Below, in pieces: positions 5,567 to 26,086 of a stretch of 64,000 nucleotides of DNA. Position 1 is the first letter of the stretch; the number at the start of each line of letters is the position of its first letter. The stretch is taken from the NCBI GenBank assembly GCA_965248925.1, contig CBDFLE010000006.1, positions 64,001 through 128,000 on the forward strand. Reading direction: 5' to 3'. This stretch comes from Candidatus Multivoradales bacterium (GTDB lineage: Bacteria; Acidobacteriota; Thermoanaerobaculia; Multivoradales; J023). The position numbers and the translations under genes were made by a program. The notes under the pieces were generated by a model that saw only the letters and a list, made by a program, of their open reading frames with translations, did no database searches and was not told the DNA's origin.

Positions 5567-7384
5567 TCAAGCCACCACTTCCGACACCAGGTTATCAACG
5601 ATAAAATCCCGACGCTGCGGCGTGTTCTTGCCCATGTAGAAATCAAGAGCCTTCGAAACTTCGCTCATCGCCCGCACTTGCACCGGCTCTAGCCGGATGT
5701 CGGCACCGGTGAATTGCTTGAATTCTTTGGGAGAGATCTCACCCAGGCCCTTGAAGCGCGTGACCTCGGCCTTCTGGATGCGATCCAGGGCCTGATCGCG
5801 CTCGGCTTCGCTGTAGCAGTAGGCTGTCGCTTTTTTGTTGCGAACGCGGAACAGTGGCGTTTCGAAGATATAGACATGACCGCCAAGCACCAGCTCTTCG
5901 AAATAACGCAAGAAGTAGGTCAACAAAAGGTTACGGATATGCATGCCATCAACATCGGCGTCGGTAGCGATAACGACTTTGTTGTAACGCAGCCCTTCGA
6001 TGCCATCCTCGATGCCCAGGGCACGCATCAGGTTGTAGAGTTCTTCGTTCTTGTAAATCGCATCGCGCCTTAGGCCGTAAGTGTTGAGCGGTTTGCCCTT
6101 GATGGTGAAAATCGCCTGACTGTCGACATCGCGAGCCTGCACCATCGAACCACCGGCTGAGTCGCCCTCGGTGATGAACAGGCTCGACTCCACCGCCAGT
6201 ATGTGTTTGTCGCCGCGGTGGATCTTGCAATCAATCAGCTTGGGGATGCGGATGGCGGTTTTTCTGGCCCGCTCACGGGCCTGCTTCTTGACCGAAGCGA
6301 GTTCTTTGCGCAACTTCTCGTTGGCTTCGATCTTGGCCACCAGTTTCTGCGCATACTCAGAGTTGCGATGCAGCCAGACGTTGACCGCCTCCTTGACCGC
6401 GGCGACGATCCAACCGCGCACATCGGTGGAGCCCAGCTTGTTCTTGGTCTGGCTCTCGAACACCGGCTCTTGTAGTTTGACCGCCACTGCGCCGACGATG
6501 CCGTCGCGCACGTCGGCGCCGGCAAAACTCTTCTTGGCGAACTCGTTGATGCCCTTGAGCAAACCCTCGCGGAAAGCGCTCTGGTGGGTGCCACCATCCG
6601 CTGTATGCTGGCCGTTGACGAAGCTGAAATAGCTCTCGCCATAGCTGTTGGTGTGGGTGAAAGCGAACTCCAGCCGACTCTCGCGATGGTGCACCAGCGG
6701 ATAGACCGTCGGTTCCTCGCCAATCTCCGCCGCCAGCAGGTCTTCGAGCCCGTTCTTACTGCGAAACGCTTTGCCGTTGAGCAGCAGGGTGAGACCGGCG
6801 TTGAGGTAGGCGTAGTAGCGCAGCCGGTGCTCGATGTACTGGTCGTTCCACTCGAAATCGCCAAAGATCTCCGGGTCGGGAGCGAATTCGACGAAGGTGC
6901 CGTTCTTGCCGGCACTGTCGCGCCCCCCCTTCTCCATCGTCTTCTTGCCCCGACTGAAGAGCGCCCGCTGGTACTTCTTGTCGCGGTAGCTACACACCTG
7001 GAAGTGTACCGACAGGGCGTTGACCGCTTTGGTGCCGACCCCGTTCAGGCCGACCGAGAATTGGAAGACGTCGTCATTGAACTTGCCGCCGGTGTTGATT
7101 TCTGACACGCAGTCGACCACTTTACCCAGGGGGATGCCGCGACCGTAATCGCGCACCGACAGGGTCGAGCCGTCGCGGACGATCTCGACCCGCTTGCCGT
7201 GGCCCATGATGAACTCGTCGATAGAGTTGTCGACCACTTCCTTGAGCAGAATGTAGATGCCGTCGTCGGGATGGGAGCCATCGCCCACCCGACCGATGTA
7301 CATGCCGGTTCTCAGGCGGATGTGCGACAAGGCGTCGAGCGTCTGGATGGCGCTCTCGTCGTAGACCGGTTGCTTGTTGGCCAA
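5567..7384 (-). CDS. parE: DNA topoisomerase IV subunit B (type IIA, short form)
   Basis: EVVDNSIDE, DYGRGIP, GLNGVGTKAVNALS, TEGDSAG, TDADVDG, RFKGLGE; 605 aa, no gyrase insert. Confidence 0.85.
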   Translation of the reverse strand: MANKQPVYDESAIQTLDALSHIRLRTGMYIGRVGDGSHPDDGIYILLKEVVDNSIDEFIMGHGKRVEIVRDGSTLSVRDYGRGIPLGKVVDCVSEINTGGKFNDDVFQFSVGLNGVGTKAVNALSVHFQVCSYRDKKYQRALFSRGKKTMEKGGRDSAGKNGTFVEFAPDPEIFGDFEWNDQYIEHRLRYYAYLNAGLTLLLNGKAFRSKNGLEDLLAAEIGEEPTVYPLVHHRESRLEFAFTHTNSYGESYFSFVNGQHTADGGTHQSAFREGLLKGINEFAKKSFAGADVRDGIVGAVAVKLQEPVFESQTKNKLGSTDVRGWIVAAVKEAVNVWLHRNSEYAQKLVAKIEANEKLRKELASVKKQARERARKTAIRIPKLIDCKIHRGDKHILAVESSLFITEGDSAGGSMVQARDVDSQAIFTIKGKPLNTYGLRRDAIYKNEELYNLMRALGIEDGIEGLRYNKVVIATDADVDGMHIRNLLLTYFLRYFEELVLGGHVYIFETPLFRVRNKKATAYCYSEAERDQALDRIQKAEVTRFKGLGEISPKEFKQFTGADIRLEPVQVRAMSEVSKALDFYMGKNTPQRRDFIVDNLVSEVVA

Positions 7385-20246: not shown

Positions 20247-21953
20247 TCAGATCACCATCGCCAACCGCTTCGACATCACGGCGCCGGTGGTGGGATCGTG
20301 TAGGGAAATCAACAAACGGTGCGACTTCTTGCGCAGTTTGAGCTGGGTCTCAAAGACCACCACCTCACCCTGCTCGGGCCTCGAACCGACTTGGATAGTT
20401 ACCGGAACTACGGAGATATCGGCCCTGTCGCCACCCTCGTCGGTCGCCGCCACGCGCAGCTCGAGCGACGCGGCGTACCCCCCCTGATGCGCTAGCACCG
20501 CCACCTGGTCCAGCGGAATCTCCAGGCGAAGGGGTACGAGGATTTTGCGTAGGCCCGCGGCACTCGGTGCACCGAGTTCGGCGCCAAAGTCCTCCGCGAA
20601 CGGCAACGGTGTATCGAAAAGCTGGGCACTCTCGACCAACATAGTCACTTCGCTCTGCCGGGAGAGGTCGGTGAAGCTGGCACGGCTGCGCACTTTGAGC
20701 CCCTTGACTCGAGTCTTGACCTCGATCCGATGCTGCTCGTCGTTCTCCCGCCACTGGGGAGTGAAGCCCAGCCAGTAGTACGAGCGAGTGTCGTCCAGGA
20801 CGCCTTCGAGGGCACTCAAGCTGGCACCATCGATGAACGCACGGCCACCGGTTTGAGCTGCCAGATAGTGGAGAGAATCCTCGTTCAGCCAATCCCGTTG
20901 ACGAGACCGCTCGTCGGCGATAGAAGCGGCGAAGACACTGCGATGCTCGGCGCTGCCGTAAGTACGGCGTTCGAGCCCAGCGACATCGACCGGATAGAGG
21001 GTATAACCGAGACGGTTGGCGGTATCGATCAAGGGGCGGAAGGCGCGACGGCCGCCAGCAAGCCCCGAATAGGTGTGATTCTGCTGCGTGGAGTTGTAGT
21101 CGTAGCTACCGGCGGCCCAGGCTTCACCCGAGATCGGCCAGCCACCAGATAGCAGCAGCATGACTTTGCGGCCATCGGGCCTGGCGAAGCCGCGCAACGC
21201 CGAGGCGGCGGCAGCGGCCACCCGGGCGACCTGCAACTGACGCTCGCGGCCATAAGTGAGGGCGCCAGCGGGATAGTCGTAAGCGCCGCGGAAGCCAACA
21301 TTGGCGAAACCCCTGCCGCCGAAACCACTACCCAAACCACGGCGGTAGAAGCGGTGGGTCGAGTCCAAGTTGCGCTCCTGGGCCAACCAGCGCAGCCCGT
21401 AAGATCGGCGCTCCTTGGCACCTTCCAACACCCGCGTCAGCTCGCGGGTCGACTTCGACCAGGTTGACAGCAACTGCACCTGGCCACCATCAAAAGCAAC
21501 CACCGCCATGCTGTCCTTAGGTCCCAGCTGCGACAGCTGGCCGATCACCCGGTCGATCACCCGATTGCGGTGGGACGGCAAGGCAAAAAGATCGTCGATG
21601 AACACCAAGAAACGGGTACCGACCGTATCGCCAGCGCGAAACGCCGGCAAGGCCACGGACTGGGAGTGAACTTGGGAGGTCACCGCCTGTCCCGCCGAAA
21701 CCTCGGTGAAGAAGTCGATCGGCACCTCGGTGCCATCGATCAGCAGGGCGAAGTCCTGGGGACCGAGACCCACCACCCGGTCGCCCTTCTGGGTCACCAC
21801 TACTTCCAGATTCAGCACCCGGACGTCGACGATCTCGCCGAAGGCAGCAGACAAATCGGCCGCCTCGTCGGCAGCGATCGGCAGAGCCATGAGCAAGAGC
21901 AACATCACCGCCAGGGTGAGTGTTGTGAGTTTGGCGAAGCTTGAATTTTTCAT
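20247..21953 (-). CDS. Exported VWA domain protein (acidobacterial VWFA-related type)
   Basis: Signal peptide; VDVRVLNLEVVVT..G.RV.GL...DF, GRKVMLLLSGG, LYPVD..GL, LAAQTGG, SYYWLGF. Confidence 0.85.
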   Translation of the reverse strand: MKNSSFAKLTTLTLAVMLLLLMALPIAADEAADLSAAFGEIVDVRVLNLEVVVTQKGDRVVGLGPQDFALLIDGTEVPIDFFTEVSAGQAVTSQVHSQSVALPAFRAGDTVGTRFLVFIDDLFALPSHRNRVIDRVIGQLSQLGPKDSMAVVAFDGGQVQLLSTWSKSTRELTRVLEGAKERRSYGLRWLAQERNLDSTHRFYRRGLGSGFGGRGFANVGFRGAYDYPAGALTYGRERQLQVARVAAAAASALRGFARPDGRKVMLLLSGGWPISGEAWAAGSYDYNSTQQNHTYSGLAGGRRAFRPLIDTANRLGYTLYPVDVAGLERRTYGSAEHRSVFAASIADERSRQRDWLNEDSLHYLAAQTGGRAFIDGASLSALEGVLDDTRSYYWLGFTPQWRENDEQHRIEVKTRVKGLKVRSRASFTDLSRQSEVTMLVESAQLFDTPLPFAEDFGAELGAPSAAGLRKILVPLRLEIPLDQVAVLAHQGGYAASLELRVAATDEGGDRADISVVPVTIQVGSRPEQGEVVVFETQLKLRKKSHRLLISLHDPTTGAVMSKRLAMVI

Positions 21954-22049
21954 CGTTTTCCGCTCTATTTGAAACGCGACTGGAGGGCCGCGAAGTCGTT
22001 GTGTTGCGTCTTCAGGGCCGCCCCGGAGGGCGACCTTGCCTTGCCATAC

Positions 22050-22066
22050 AGCAAAGCGCGTACCAA
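22050..22066 (-). promoter_or_regulatory. Sigma-54 (-24/-12) promoter upstream of the VWA gene
   Basis: Minus strand TTGGTACG-CGCT-TTGCT versus consensus YTGGCACG-N4-TTGCW; about 100 nt upstream of the ATG. Confidence 0.6.
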
Positions 22067-22228
22067 CTTCGGGATTGGGTCAAGAAAGGCGGCAAACAAA
22101 GGGAGATGGCCCAGATTGGCGCAGCGGAGAAGCAGCTCTGGACCGGCGCTGTCCTCGGCTGGGGACGGGGTGCGGCGCTCGCCGAGGGCGATGAAGCCAG
22201 GGGCGGGCAACCAATACCTGGAATTAGC

Positions 22229-22263
22229 AAAAGGCCCCGGTCACTGCTGCAACCGAGGCCTTT
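22229..22263 (-). terminator. Intrinsic terminator
   Basis: Minus strand AAAGGCCTCGGT-N10-ACCGGGGCC-TTTT. Confidence 0.7.
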
Positions 22264-22343
22264 CGGGTCTGTTTTGGTGGCGTTGGGTCTCCCCCCTCAA
22301 GCGGGGAAGCTCTCCGCGAGCCACTTTGACTGCGGAGCTTCCC

Positions 22344-22382
22344 CTAGGGGGTCGCCACCTCTGTCAAACCGTAATTATCCAC
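22344..22382 (-). CDS. Candidate 12-aa small ORF MDNYGLTEVATP
   Basis: Perfect AAGGAGGTGA Shine-Dalgarno (22387-22396), GTG start, TAG stop, followed by a long hairpin and terminator. Confidence 0.45.
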   Translation of the reverse strand: MDNYGLTEVATP

Positions 22383-22609
22383 AGAATCACCTCCTTCTTG
22401 GGGCGAGTCCTCAAACGGCGGTACCCAAACCGCCCAGCTCCGGAAGCCGCCCAACGCCTCGACGGAACCGCCACACCGCATGGATGTGGAGCTTCAGAGA
22501 CCTCCATGGTGAAATAGGCGGCGCCGGATGTCAATATGAGCAGGCAACATTGGCCGCCCAACAATCGGTCTGCCGTTAGCTCAAGCAACCTCAAAGGAAT
22601 CGAATTACG

Positions 22610-22846
22610 ATGAACGAATGGCTGTCAATCGCCACGGAGGGGCCGGTGGTCCGGCGGGGCCTGCTCTACGCTCTGATCGTCGGCTGCGTCTTGATCACCA
22701 TCAACCACGGCGACGCCCTGATGCGCGGCGAAGTGAACGGCCGGCTGCTGCTGAAGATGGGACTGACCACGCTGGTGCCCTTCCTGGTATCGACTTTTTC
22801 GAGCGTGGGCGCCTTGCGCCGAGCGCGGCGGCAATCCAATGGCTAA
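22610..22846 (+). CDS. NrtS-like small membrane protein
   Basis: AL.VG.VL..IN.GD....G......K..LT..VPFLVST pattern; AAGGA RBS. Confidence 0.75.
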   Translation: MNEWLSIATEGPVVRRGLLYALIVGCVLITINHGDALMRGEVNGRLLLKMGLTTLVPFLVSTFSSVGALRRARRQSNG

Positions 22847-25010
22847 CGCGATGACCCGGGCGATGCCCCAGCGACTCGCCCGGCGGCTCATCGCCCGACA
22901 GCCGATCGCCGGGTGGCTCCTCGGTTTGCTCAGCCTGGGGGCCGCCGCGGTCGTGATATTTGCCGTCGATCTGACGCCGCAGGTAGGGGCAGACTTCTTC
23001 TTCTCCACCGACGATCCACAGCTACGGGCATCGCAACAGATCGCCGACCTATTCCCGGCCGGTGAGCAGCTCTTGCTGTCAGCGACCAGCGAAGATCCCT
23101 TTGCCAGCGAGTCGTTGGAGCGCCTCGAGGCCCTGTGCCAGGAACTCGAGCAAGTCGCCGGCATCGGCGCCGTGCAGAGCCTCACTCGGGGCCCGTCAAG
23201 CCCGCAGAAAGTAGCCCAAAGCCCGCTGTGGAAGCGCCTACTGCTGACCGACAGTCCACATATCAGCCAGTTGGTGGTGACCCTCGACCGGGGCCTCGAC
23301 GGTGCGGCCAGCGGCCGCCTGGTGGATGCTGTCGAACAGCTCATCGCCAGCCACAGCTCGCCAGATTTCAGACTGCGGATCTCGGGAGCGCCTTACGTGG
23401 TGGAACTGATCCGCCGCCATCTGAAGCAAGATCTGCGGCTCTTCAGCCTTTTCTCGCTGGCCGTCTTCGGGCTGGTGATCGGGCTGGTGTATCGTTCGCC
23501 GCGGGTGGTCCTCGGCACTCTGACCACCTGCTTGGCAGCCTGTGCGGTGACCCTCGCCTTGCTGCCGTGGGTAGGGGTCGCGATCGGGCCGCTGACCGCC
23601 AATTTGGTCACCATCATTTTTGTACTGACCCTGTCGCACATGGTTTTCTTGACCGCCAACTGGCGATTGGCGTGGACCACCGCCAAGGACTCCGCCGCCG
23701 GCTCCGACAGCGCCTTGGTGGTCGCCACCGAGCGCACCCTGGGCGCCTCGTTCTGGGCCATGGCAACCACCGTCTTGGGATTCTCCAGCCTGCTGCTAGC
23801 CTCCGCCAAACCGCTGCGCGAACTGGGCGCCGCCGGTGCTCTTGGAACGGTGGTAGCGATCGTTCTAGCTTACGGGCTCTACCCCGCTTTCTTGCGCCAC
23901 GGCACGCCGCGAAGGGCGCGCGCGACCACCTCTCGCGCGGCCAAACCGTTGCCGACTTGGGGCTGGCCGGCACTGGCACTGCTATTGACCTCCTTAGCCG
24001 CTTGGGGCTTACCCAAGCTCGACACTGACCCCGGCCTGCTGAGCTACTTTGCTGAGCACAGCGAGATCCGCGCCGGCCTTGAGCATTTCGATCGTCATGG
24101 CGGCTCTAGCCCAATGTTGCTGGTGGTCAGAGCGGCAGACCGCCAGCGGCTCGATCAAGGCGCACCAGCGAAGCAGCTCGAAGACTTGCAAGAGCTGCTC
24201 GAAACCGACCCGGAAGTTGGCATGGCGTTGTCGCTACCGGTGCTGTTGGCTGAGGCTCGCCAGGTGCCCTTCTCCTTCTTACTCTCCACCGACAAGCTGC
24301 TCGACCTGCTCGACAGCGAGCGCTATCAACGGGTGGCCAGCAGCTTCATTACCCGCCAGCGCGACCAGGCCCTGTTCTTGCTGCGCCTGCGCGAGTCCGG
24401 GCGTCAAGCACCTCGGCGGGAGATCATCGAACGGCTGCGCGGGCAAGTCGCCAAAGCGGGGCTTGAGCTGGAGCTAGCCGGCGGTATCTACGATTTGCAA
24501 GCGCAACTCGGACTGCTGGTCCGAGGCAGCCTGATCCGGGGACTCGGCGGCCTGCTGCTGCTCTTCGTTGGAGTCGCCGCGGTGGTGTCGAGGAGTCCTC
24601 GATCAACCCTGTCGATGGTGCTCTGCCTGGGAGCGGTGCCGGTGTTGGTCTTGGGCGCATTCGGGCTCGCCGGTATTCCTCTCGATGTGATTTCTTCACC
24701 GGCCGCCAATGTTGCTATCGCCTTGGGTATCGACGCCATGATCCACCTGGTGGCGGCGATGCGCCGCCACGGCGGCCCGCCGGCGGTGGCTTGGGCGATG
24801 GCCCGTGAGGAACTGCGGCAACCAGTGTTAGGAGCAGCGCTAATCCTCGCCGCCGGCTTTGGCATCTTCTCCCTGTCGAGCTTTCCGCCGACCCAGCGCT
24901 TTGGTCTAGCCGTCGCCGCCGGCACCCTCTGCGCCGCCCTGCTGGCCTTATGGGTGCTACCGGTGCTGGCTGCCGGACGCTGGAGTCGGAGTCGAGGTCG
25001 GGCTGGATGA
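22839..25010 (+). CDS. MMPL/RND family membrane transporter
   Basis: Two repeats of extracytoplasmic loop plus TM bundle; ISGAPYV, ATTVLGFSSL, LGIDAMIH, AGFGIFSLSSFPP..RFG. Confidence 0.85.
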   Translation: MANAMTRAMPQRLARRLIARQPIAGWLLGLLSLGAAAVVIFAVDLTPQVGADFFFSTDDPQLRASQQIADLFPAGEQLLLSATSEDPFASESLERLEALCQELEQVAGIGAVQSLTRGPSSPQKVAQSPLWKRLLLTDSPHISQLVVTLDRGLDGAASGRLVDAVEQLIASHSSPDFRLRISGAPYVVELIRRHLKQDLRLFSLFSLAVFGLVIGLVYRSPRVVLGTLTTCLAACAVTLALLPWVGVAIGPLTANLVTIIFVLTLSHMVFLTANWRLAWTTAKDSAAGSDSALVVATERTLGASFWAMATTVLGFSSLLLASAKPLRELGAAGALGTVVAIVLAYGLYPAFLRHGTPRRARATTSRAAKPLPTWGWPALALLLTSLAAWGLPKLDTDPGLLSYFAEHSEIRAGLEHFDRHGGSSPMLLVVRAADRQRLDQGAPAKQLEDLQELLETDPEVGMALSLPVLLAEARQVPFSFLLSTDKLLDLLDSERYQRVASSFITRQRDQALFLLRLRESGRQAPRREIIERLRGQVAKAGLELELAGGIYDLQAQLGLLVRGSLIRGLGGLLLLFVGVAAVVSRSPRSTLSMVLCLGAVPVLVLGAFGLAGIPLDVISSPAANVAIALGIDAMIHLVAAMRRHGGPPAVAWAMAREELRQPVLGAALILAAGFGIFSLSSFPPTQRFGLAVAAGTLCAALLALWVLPVLAAGRWSRSRGRAG

Positions 25011-26086
25011 AAATCGCCCTGCTACTTTCTGGCGGCGTCGACAGCTCGGTGGCCCTCGGCCTACTGCGCCGTCAAGGCCACGAAGTAGTGGCCTTCTACT
25101 TGAAGATCTGGCTCGAGGAAGAGTTGCAGGGACTCGGCGAATGCCCTTGGGAAGAGGATCTGAACTTCGCCCGAGCGGTCACCGATCAAGCCGGCGTGGC
25201 CTTGCGGGTGGTGCCTTTGCAGCAGGAGTACCACCAGCGAGTGGTCAGCTGGGCGATCGGCGAACTGCGGGCTGGCCGCACTCCGAGCCCCGACCTTTTT
25301 TGCAACCAGCGGGTCAAGTTCGGCGCCTTCTTCGAGCATCTACAGCAGCGGACCAACGCTTTCGATCGCATCGCCTCGGGCCACTATGCCCGCTTGTCGC
25401 GACCCCCAGGCGGGATTGAGCTGCGGCGGGCCGCCGACCCGGTGAAAGACCAGACTTACTTCCTGTCGCAAATGAGCCGGCAACAGCTGGAGCGCTGCGA
25501 ATTCCCGCTCGGGAGTTATCTCAAACAGCAAGTCAGGCGGCTCGCGGCGGAGTTGGAGCTACCCAATCGCGATCGACCGGACAGTCAGGGGATCTGCTTT
25601 CTCGGCAAGATCCCCTTCGACGACTTCGTGCGCAGCTACCTGGGCGAGCACCACGGCGAGATTCGCGATCGGCGCACTGGCCAACACCTGGGCGAGCATC
25701 GTGGCCACTGGTTTCACACCATTGGTCAGCGCAAGGGTCTCGGTTTGAGTGGCGGCCCGTGGTACGTAGTCGACAAGGACATCGCCAGCAACTGTCTGTG
25801 GGTGGCTCACGGTGAGCAGCTGGAGGAATACCGCCGCGATCGCTTCCGCCTGCTAGCTCCGAGCTGGTTAGCCGCGGTGCCAGCTCTCGGCCGCCGGCTG
25901 CAAGTGAAGGTCCGCCACACTCCCCGAGCCGCCGACTGTCGCTTAGCCGAGAGCGCGGACGGCAGCATCGAAGTGCTGCTAGACCAGCCGGACCCAGGTA
26001 TTGCGGTGGGCCAGTCGGCGGCGCTCTACGACGGCCAGCTATGCCTGGGTGGCGGCCAGATCGGTAGCTCTGCAAACCGCAGCTGA
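25007..26086 (+). CDS. mnmA: tRNA-specific 2-thiouridylase
   Basis: SGGVDSS, TPSPDLFCN..VKFG, ASGHYA, KDQTYFL, DSQGICF, TIGQRKGL, GQSA. Confidence 0.96.
   Translation: MKIALLLSGGVDSSVALGLLRRQGHEVVAFYLKIWLEEELQGLGECPWEEDLNFARAVTDQAGVALRVVPLQQEYHQRVVSWAIGELRAGRTPSPDLFCNQRVKFGAFFEHLQQRTNAFDRIASGHYARLSRPPGGIELRRAADPVKDQTYFLSQMSRQQLERCEFPLGSYLKQQVRRLAAELELPNRDRPDSQGICFLGKIPFDDFVRSYLGEHHGEIRDRRTGQHLGEHRGHWFHTIGQRKGLGLSGGPWYVVDKDIASNCLWVAHGEQLEEYRRDRFRLLAPSWLAAVPALGRRLQVKVRHTPRAADCRLAESADGSIEVLLDQPDPGIAVGQSAALYDGQLCLGGGQIGSSANRS

Follow-up and report, generated by a model that had tools for sequence, protein, structure and literature searches.

Comparative analysis of a 64,000-nucleotide (nt) stretch of DNA from a Candidatus Multivoradales bacterium (contig CBDFLE010000006.1, positions 64,001 to 128,000; hereafter the window, whose numbering is used throughout) shows, on the minus strand at 22229-22534, a free-standing, single-copy gene that runs from promoter to terminator and is predicted to produce an RNA of about 270 nt. 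Three features that are normally found apart are joined in it: a pseudoknotted fold of riboswitch size, the strongest possible ribosome-binding site and a reading frame that is conserved while the protein it encodes is not. Related sequences show selection for an open frame of fixed length that ends at a fixed structural position, and the peptide shows no constraint beyond the demands of the RNA structure. On these comparisons we rate the element as a new RNA family of the 'small RNA with embedded open reading frame (ORF)' kind. Its high interest rests on its breadth of occurrence, its architecture and the conservation of the frame only. The parts of the gene are as follows.

22506-22534, minus strand: promoter, with a -35 box TTGACA (22534-22529), a 17-nt spacer and a -10 box CACCAT (22511-22506).
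22471-22489, minus strand: hairpin P1, CCACA/UGUGG, the length of which varies among members; it is seen in the alignment of 13 loci.
22436-22469, minus strand: helix P1.1, which encloses P2 and pairs GGUUCC (22469-22464) with GGAGCU (22441-22436).
22460-22456 with 22447-22443, minus strand: hairpin P2, with the loop GUUGGGCG (22454-22448).
22417-22434, minus strand: hairpin P3, GGCGGU/ACCGCC, with the loop UUGGGU (22428-22423).
22398-22405, minus strand: segment CGCCCCAA ahead of the Shine-Dalgarno (SD) sequence, which pairs with the P2 loop (22454-22448) to form pseudoknot PK2.
22384-22397, minus strand: extended SD sequence GAAGGAGGUGAUUC, which can pair with the 16S 3' tail GGAUCACCUCCUUUC of the same genome over 14 consecutive positions, two of these being wobble pairs.
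22344-22382, minus strand: micro-ORF consisting of GUG, 11 codons and UAG (V/M-DNYGLTEVATP-stop), codons 2 to about 6 being an A/U-rich single-stranded linker.
22266-22370, minus strand: closing helices of the 3' domain, namely Pa, GGUUUG (22370-22365) with CAGACC (22271-22266), and Pb, GGUGGCG (22359-22353) with CGCCACC (22282-22276).
22341-22351, minus strand: hairpin P5, CCCC-CUA-GGGG, whose loop holds or adjoins the stop codon UAG (22346-22344).
22308-22339, minus strand: P6 arm, AGCUCCGC with GCGGAGAGCU, bulged and with a variable apical part, as read from the window and the aligned members.
22293-22306, minus strand: hairpin P8, CCCC-GCUUGA-GGGG, which lies outside the covariance model.
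22283-22288, minus strand: junction strand ACCCAA, which can form pseudoknot PK1 with the P3 loop UUGGGU (22428-22423), with 6/6 pairs possible in this genome.
22229-22262, minus strand: intrinsic terminator, a G+C-rich hairpin of 17 bp followed by UUUU, taken from the fold prediction.

The micro-ORF of the window reads GUG GAU AAU UAC GGU UUG ACA GAG GUG GCG ACC CCC UAG. Its counterparts were analyzed in 137 unique elements, 132 of which could be parsed automatically; four others carry the ORF when inspected by eye and the fifth is a partial match. All 132 parsed elements have an ORF of 12-17 codons, 14 codons in 97 of them, closed by TAG in 80, TAA in 40 and TGA in 12, and in two control frames a stop occurs in the same window in 2/132 and 1/132. 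The distance from the start codon to Pb is a multiple of three in 130/132. The two exceptions, with linkers of 19 and 25 nt, come from metagenome-assembled genomes (MAGs) labeled Planctomycetales and Planctomycetaceae, and a third off-frame case was found in a MAG labeled Eisenbacteria. All three have the stop 5 nt past Pb instead of 6 nt, which brings start and stop back into frame, and the Pb strand GAGGUGGCG is read as R/G-G-G instead of E-V-A. The ORF was also present in all 53 real matches of a set collected with the covariance model only, independently of any sequence pattern (49 by script and four, with the SD variant AAGGGGGUG, by eye). Conservation of the frame together with these compensated shifts argues strongly that the ORF is a translated one, and we infer that ribosomes do translate it. 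A frame of 12 codons that remains unseen by gene callers can be under strong selection.

Selection does not appear to act on the amino acids in the first half of the ORF. Among 93 unique ORFs of 14 codons, codons 2-6 have similar entropies at their first, second and third positions (1.83/1.97/1.58 and 1.62/1.84/1.64 are two examples), and since the three positions are equally variable no amino-acid selection is visible there. The linker is distinguished by its composition, with 58% A+T compared with 30.5% in the remaining RNA. The conserved residues G-L-x-E-V-A fall, like the last two codons, on Pa, Pb and P5; E-V-A is near-invariant in the main group, with E in 91, V in 93 and A in 91 of the 93 sequences. 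A preliminary description of the locus, prepared from the letters of the sequence, had offered a small peptide gene as one of three readings: what holds of this is a frame selected to stay open with a fixed end (132/132), and what does not is an amino-acid constraint of the peptide's own.

The SD sequence followed by a GTG start and a micro-ORF, as initially described, is indeed present in the form AAGAAGGAGGTGATTCT (AAGAAGGAGGUGAUUCU when written as RNA), with the GTG at 22382-22380 and the end of the frame at 22344. The 16S gene of the same genome ends in ...GGAUCACCUCCUUUCAGAG. The family consensus SD AGAAAGGAGGUGAUCC is expected to form 16 pairs with the 16S tail, and its core AGGAGGTG is invariant in 41 aligned members, while the variants GGUCC, GAUUC and GGGGG, which are A/G and C/U changes, retain pairing through G.U wobble. 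In the 7.98-Mb genome the 12-mer GAAGGAGGTGAT occurs a single time and AAGGAGGTGAT five times, one of the five lying antisense to the 16S gene. A constant 7 nt separate GGAGG from the start codon, and the 132 analyzable unique members begin with GTG (111) or TTG (21) and never with ATG (0). The absence of AUG may mean that initiation sensitive to initiation factor 3 (IF3) is retained, or it may reflect a structural role for the G/U. Reading the sequence further reveals an internal GGAGGUG within Pb that precedes the last sense codon by about 8 nt and with which the anti-SD sequence could re-pair at termination.

From 5' to 3' the family is built of P1, P1.1 enclosing P2, P3, a short linker, CGCCCA directly 5' of the SD, the SD, the start codon, a linker of about 15 nt, Pa and Pb around P5, the P6 arm and P8, a junction strand of the form N'CCCAA, the 3' strands of Pb and Pa and finally the terminator; the family loops are UUGGGCG in P2 and UUGGGN in P3. 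Covariation among members supports eight helices and pseudoknot PK2, while PK1 covaries only weakly. In a MAFFT alignment of 32 sequences, 88.4% of cells are paired and 21/40 pairs show compensatory changes, compared with 11.8 +/- 2.0 in shuffled alignments (0/500 reach the observed value) and far lower values in slid controls. In a model-made alignment of 91 sequences, 89.4% of cells are paired compared with 80.2% after shuffling, compensatory changes are seen in 30/40 pairs compared with 20.0 +/- 1.6 (again 0/500 reach this), and the covariation score is 0.290 compared with 0.141 for shuffled and at most 0.108 for slid controls. PK2, P5 and P8 covary even though they are absent from the model. 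A long-range alternative proposed by RNAalifold (columns 25-29 with columns 109-113 of alignment A2) showed one-sided changes only and was not adopted.

In the 5' domain, all 6/6 pairs of P1.1 show compensatory changes, as do 2/4 pairs of P2 in the MAFFT alignment and 4/4 in the model-made one. P3, the GGCGGT/ACCGCC hairpin of the preliminary description (22434-22417, minus strand), was recovered with 98.4% of cells paired and compensatory changes in 6/6 pairs of the model-made and 4/6 of the MAFFT alignment. Although outside the model, PK2 is paired in 88.3% of cells and compensatory in 4/5 pairs; its variants, identified by eye on the aligned rows, include one in which an A-U pair is substituted (UAGGCG:CGCCUA) and one in which the strands are swapped (GCCC:GGGC). 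PK1, likewise outside the model, is paired in 83.2% of cells, and its outer two pairs show some compensatory changes (UA 32, UG 8, CG 4, etc.). Its GGG:CCC core is invariant and hence uninformative. Support for PK1 is lower than for PK2, and we regard PK1 as plausible but not proven.

Both closing helices of the 3' domain are part of the model: Pb is 99.1% paired and almost invariant, whereas Pa is 71.4% paired with compensatory changes in 6/6 pairs. A separate script, working outside the model, found a hairpin of at least 4 bp that begins 0-3 nt past Pb in 112 unique members. The stems of this P5 hairpin differ widely (CCUC/GGGG 28, CCUC/GAGG 13, CCCC/GGGG 11, CCCU/AGGG 10, CCCG/CGGG 8, GCGU/ACGC 3 and others), and the ORF stop falls within its loop (+/-1 nt) in 107/112 members. 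P8 stems vary in a similar manner (CCCC/GGGG 35, CCCG/CGGG 16, UCCC/GGGA 10, CCCU/AGGG 8), and local P5 and P8 hairpins occur together in 90/114 analyzable members. A hairpin of about 84 nt had originally been proposed for this region. Its base, GGTGGCG (22359-22353) with CGCCACC (22282-22276), is Pb, but the inner pairing of GGGGAAGCTC with GAGCTTCCCC is not a family structure: such cross-pairing is possible in 21 of the 90 members that have both P5 and P8, and these local hairpins replace the long inner pairing in the junction because the related sequences support them.

The gene carries its own transcription signals. TTGACA occupies the aligned position in 11/13 related loci, is TTGACG in one and displaced in one, and an nAnnAT box follows 17-18 nt past TTGACA in the alignment of these 13 loci. 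More broadly, 84/128 unique elements have a sigma-70-like promoter in the 100 nt that precede the model match, compared with 1/128 for a window 300 nt further upstream and 5/128 for the reverse complement. Transcription probably starts near 22499, as placed from the promoter boxes. The unit is larger than first proposed: with its start near that position and the promoter at 22534-22506, it continues about 50 nt further in the 5' direction. At the other end, the intrinsic terminator that had been predicted is found in the fold as a 17-bp hairpin with TTTT at 22262-22229; a stricter built-in terminator scan omitted it because its tail has four T rather than five. A terminator-like hairpin is found within 60 nt past the model match in 121/133 unique members, mostly starting 0-6 nt after it, compared with 45/133 in a control window under equally lax criteria. 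One member (L013) has a second near-copy of the terminator hairpin sequence after the first, about 80 nt downstream of the element, and another (L018) has a long, nearly perfect palindromic hairpin at 5750-5844 of its locus, about 90-180 nt upstream of the element, which gives spurious microRNA-model matches on both strands.

The combination of features had been thought unlikely to arise by chance, which is borne out by a 226-nt stretch that folds at -115 kcal/mol (z = -5.64, with 0/200 shuffles as stable), by the uniqueness of the 12-mer and by the recurrence of the full length in other genera and families, where identity is about 70%. Public sequencing data include one RNA contig that bears on expression: a 220-nt contig from a salt-marsh metatranscriptome run aligns to 22274-22477 (minus strand) with about 85% likeness and 8-10 extra letters at each end, a weak hint that the element of a relative exists as a discrete RNA. 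Four other runs (X1-X4) contain the whole stretch, probably the source DNA, and are uninformative on expression, as are two runs (X5 and X7) that hold partial, divergent pieces only.

A DNA search of 41 relatives recovered the full 226 nt, with an identity of about 70%, in 13 genomes from several families, that of the window among them, with one copy in each. The first alignment comprised 11 of these 13 loci, two partial matches being omitted; AGGAGGUG, the GUG and GAGGUGGCG are invariant in it, and the motif is present in all 13. Of the conservation in related genomes that the preliminary description had proposed to look for, that of the SD and of covarying helices was found, while the peptide drifts.

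The range of the family was extended by a pattern scan of one genome per GTDB species, in which the degenerate pattern consisted of an SD, NTG, a gap of 12-33 nt and GAGGTGGCG. At least 98 stretches were obtained, and among the matches listed 90 are elements confirmed by a covariance model (R1) built from 32 sequences. The other 8 of the 98 listed loci (L035, L060, L065, L072, L080, L091, L101 and L110) are chance occurrences, placed within long frames or devoid of a short ORF, and have no model match. Carriers among the matches listed have MAG labels from at least eight other phyla. The labels listed are Acidobacteriota (Thermoanaerobaculia, Vicinamibacteria/Vicinamibacterales, Holophagales), Krumholzibacteriota/Krumholzibacteriia, Eisenbacteria, Latescibacterota, Nitrospirota/Nitrospiria/Manganitrophaceae, Myxococcota/'delta proteobacterium', Planctomycetota/Planctomycetales, Gemmatimonadetes, Fibrobacteraceae, Verrucomicrobiia and 'Rickettsiales'/Proteobacteria. 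Lone labels may reflect mis-binning of MAGs; several phyla are each backed by 3-5 independent MAGs among the matches listed. The same pattern gave two matches in IMG/VR, both chance occurrences inside one long coding frame, and a phage or mobile origin was rejected.

Searches with the covariance model returned exactly one match each in 31/41 relatives of the window's genome. Within the window's own family 21/23 genomes have a match; the assemblies of the other two are fragmented, with a completeness of 93% and 85%. Across the window's phylum 26/151 genomes were positive, with matches clustered by family (8/8, 4/4 and 2/2 in some, 0/11 and 0/8 in others), and 7/10 were positive in the small phylum around the 'Gemmatimonadetes'-labeled carrier. 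The phylum around the Nitrospiria carrier yielded 1/41, a number that says little given that the model is ill-suited and weakly scoring there and the filters were strict; one Planctomycetales genome had no match in a genome-wide model search. Two weak matches were discarded, namely L137 (26 bits), a false match with neither SD nor ORF, and a second, plus-strand match at L106 (19 bits).

Comparison of the 1.7-kb region, and of the element alone, with Rfam 15 (including Acido-1, Acido-Lenti-1, Downstream-peptide, glnA, 6S, riboswitches and leaders) gave no credible match. The best match on the element has E = 0.045 and 18.7 bits, compared with a gathering threshold of 37.8, and lies on the opposite strand; Rfam models applied to eight diverse members found nothing on the element at E <= 0.05. 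A full-text literature search, which does not reach supplementary files, returned no description of it. Acido-1 and Acido-Lenti-1 are Rfam families, and the Downstream-peptide motif, as far as it is described in the source at hand, differs from the element (PMC2864571).

We hypothesize that the 5' domain (P1.1, P2 and P3) reaches out by two loop-to-strand pseudoknots, PK2 clamping the bases just 5' of the SD and PK1 clamping the strand that closes the branched 3' domain. Between the clamps, from PK2 to Pa, an A/U-rich single-stranded stretch of about 35 nt would present the SD, the GUG/UUG start 7 nt further on and about five unconstrained codons. The footprint of an initiating ribosome covers roughly 35 nt. 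A ribosome would load on this stretch, translate 12-17 and usually 14 codons, thereby melting Pa, Pb and P5 and breaking PK1, and would terminate at the stop codon displayed in the P5 loop. We consider it slightly more probable than improbable that the function lies in the engagement of a ribosome or in a translation-driven refolding of the RNA, with the peptide as a by-product. Of the three options in the preliminary description, a ribosome-binding small RNA (sRNA) fits best, given a free-standing single-copy unit, 14-16 possible base pairs between SD and 16S rRNA and a frame-conserved ORF. If translation is part of the function, the element would be a clean natural example of a non-coding role of translation in a trans-encoded RNA and would offer a handle on ribosome biology in phyla that are nearly without genetics.

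Several points weigh against this proposal. PK1 rests mostly on its invariant GGG:CCC core, and the nested helices, including P1.1 and P2, are part of the model behind the 91-sequence alignment, which means that its counts favor the structure. The pattern loci were preselected for the SD, NTG and GAGGTGGCG motif, though not for the frame, and the sequences are related, so that the counts exceed the true number of independent events. With model scores of 22-31 bits, the three frame-shifted relatives are probable but not certain homologs. The C-terminal E-V-A-x-x could still count as peptide, and a structural role for the UAG/UAA/UGA loop is conceivable. The RNA contig is a single one, from one run and from a relative, and RNA libraries can contain DNA.

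The same data can be read as those of a purely structural non-coding RNA that binds a protein or ligand or pairs with rRNA, in which the SD-like stretch would not lead to productive translation and the frame would be a fail-safe that discharges stray ribosomes. The complex covarying architecture with PK2 fits such an RNA, as do a 16S-tail complementarity of 14-16 nt, far beyond a normal SD, and the lack of any AUG start (0/132), which would weaken initiation. We nevertheless find it doubtful, although it deserves some weight: length varies in strict threes with the stop shifting to compensate, the SD-start spacing is a constant 7 nt ahead of an A/U-rich linker of ribosome-footprint size, and a fail-safe would need no fixed ORF length such as the 14 codons of 97/132 members. 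Conversely, the kept frame, start and stop (132/132), the very strong SD and the near-invariance of E-V-A would suit a true micro-protein gene, in which the peptide of 12-17 residues, especially its C-terminal E-V-A-[S/A/T]-[S/P/L], would be functional and the RNA structure would tune expression or stability. This we judge to be improbable. The codons for E-V-A fall on the Pb strand GAGGUGGCG, the pairing partner of which, CGCCACC, is just as conserved, and in the three divergent probable relatives these nucleotides spell R-G-G or G-G-G; variation is not in excess at the third position of codons 2-6, no modifying, export or partner gene is linked, and eight helices with pseudoknots exceed the needs of an expression signal.

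That the element might instead be a leader-peptide attenuator or riboswitch for the downstream gene at 20247-21953 (minus strand) is suggested by the order of short ORF, hairpins and terminator ahead of a same-strand gene in the window, and an attenuator-like element was the third of the original options. For the family, however, such a cis-regulatory role is refuted by synteny and orientation, and we hold it to be very unlikely. An all-against-all comparison of flanking frames found no flanking ORF common to the 13 related loci, only frames overlapping the element itself, and the window's flanking proteins, the downstream gene included, are absent from the other 12. Real synteny extends at most to a group of 12/100 loci, all close relatives, and the likely downstream neighbor, picked by G+C content at third codon positions (GC3), is encoded on the element's strand in 42 loci and on the other strand in 40. 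Since neither neighbors nor orientation are conserved, the element is not an attenuator. Further, the next start lies about 275 nt beyond the terminator, no conserved antiterminator was seen (inspection was by eye only), no amino acid is enriched in codons 2-9 as a regulatory codon run would be, and Rfam gave no riboswitch or leader match. Hardly credible, finally, is a type I toxin mRNA or a precursor of a ribosomally synthesized and post-translationally modified peptide (RiPP) or of a microcin-C-like compound. Some toxin mRNAs are structured RNAs with pseudoknots, and a tiny ORF in a structured, pseudoknotted RNA is what is seen here, but the peptide is short, hydrophilic, unconstrained and variable, conservation is confined to features of one strand, the neighborhood comparison showed neither an antisense RNA gene nor linked genes for modification or export, and a single-copy element that is nearly universal in its family (21/23) is unlike an accessory module.

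A functional analogy with 6S RNA, itself a housekeeping structured RNA that mimics a natural substrate, suggests a further reading. Where 6S RNA resembles open promoter DNA for RNA polymerase, the element would resemble an initiation region for the ribosome: it would be a scaffolded, footprint-sized landing pad with full-length 16S-tail complementarity and a deliberately weak GUG or UUG start that captures or tests 30S/70S particles, for instance as a buffer for free subunits or as a trial run for new ones. In both cases release would be brought about by the machine acting on the RNA, through product RNA (pRNA) synthesis in 6S and, hypothetically, through translation of the micro-ORF here, with the RNA released and reset once a ribosome has translated the 14-codon frame and terminated at the stop in the P5 loop. 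The two RNAs share no sequence or structural similarity and there is no Rfam match. We put this reading forward as a rather unlikely one; were it true, it would define a new class of ribosome-directed regulatory RNA across many little-studied phyla.

Other known systems share some of the element's traits. Transfer-messenger RNA (tmRNA) likewise combines a short ORF with a pseudoknot-rich housekeeping RNA of about 300 nt, is single-copy with its own promoter and terminator and has the end of its frame in a hairpin; its ORF spans about 10-27 codons. However, the element lacks both a tRNA-like domain and a CCA end: ARAGORN found 0 genes in 21500-23200, no Rfam tmRNA match was obtained on the element at E <= 10, and the genome's normal tmRNA is located elsewhere (RF00023 match at C6:2766993-2767348, 145 bits). 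The element further has an SD (14 nt) and a GUG at 7-nt spacing, by which ribosomes would enter, whereas the tag frame of tmRNA has neither and is entered by trans-translation, and its C-terminal residues are not a conserved degradation tag. Dual-function sRNAs such as SgrS/SgrT, RNAIII/hld and SR1/SR1P are also independent sRNA genes with their own promoter and terminator plus a small ORF. Those known are lineage-restricted and encode conserved peptides with a function of their own, in contrast to the unconstrained peptide, the ORF of 12-17 codons, the SD of 14-16 nt and the several phyla seen here.

Leader peptides of the trpL type, including the liberated rnTrpL described in PMC6614838, likewise have a very short ORF that is selected for translation rather than for sequence, and in them too the ribosome meets hairpins ahead of an intrinsic terminator. 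The element differs in being free-standing, without a conserved downstream operon or orientation and without a regulatory codon run, and in its larger, pseudoknotted structure. The Glutamine-II/Downstream-peptide riboswitch resembles it as a structured RNA with a pseudoknot beside the SD of a short ORF (PMC2864571). In the account given there, insertions and deletions in multiples of three were taken as evidence for coding (PMC2864571), the ORFs have 17-100 codons with conserved sequence and the motif is described as one of 5' untranslated regions in cyanobacteria and marine samples (PMC2864571); the corresponding Rfam model has no match here.

The genes around the element are not conserved across the family. 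Ten neighbors scanned against Pfam were unrelated and included DUF5995, endonuclease I, amylase, Maf, M50 peptidase, formyl transferase, GDSL lipase and beta-lactamase. In the window, the gene downstream of the RNA gene (20247-21953, minus strand) is an ORF of 568 amino acids with an N-terminus that resembles a signal peptide and no Pfam match. Between it and the terminator, at 22069-22123 (minus strand), lies a sub-threshold match to the Moco-II motif (20.6 bits compared with a gathering threshold of 35, E = 1.1), which is probably due to chance. On the other side, an ORF of 78 codons (22618-22854, plus strand) starts divergently from the RNA gene and overlaps by 16 nt with the start of the gene at 22839-25010 (plus strand), which encodes an MMPL-family transporter of 723 amino acids (Pfam PF03176, E = 2.2e-26). 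This is followed by an mnmA-type tRNA 2-thiouridylase at 24950-26086 (plus strand; PF03054, E = 5.9e-67); as listed, its ORF shares 61 nt with the end of the MMPL gene, so that the true start is probably located further downstream.

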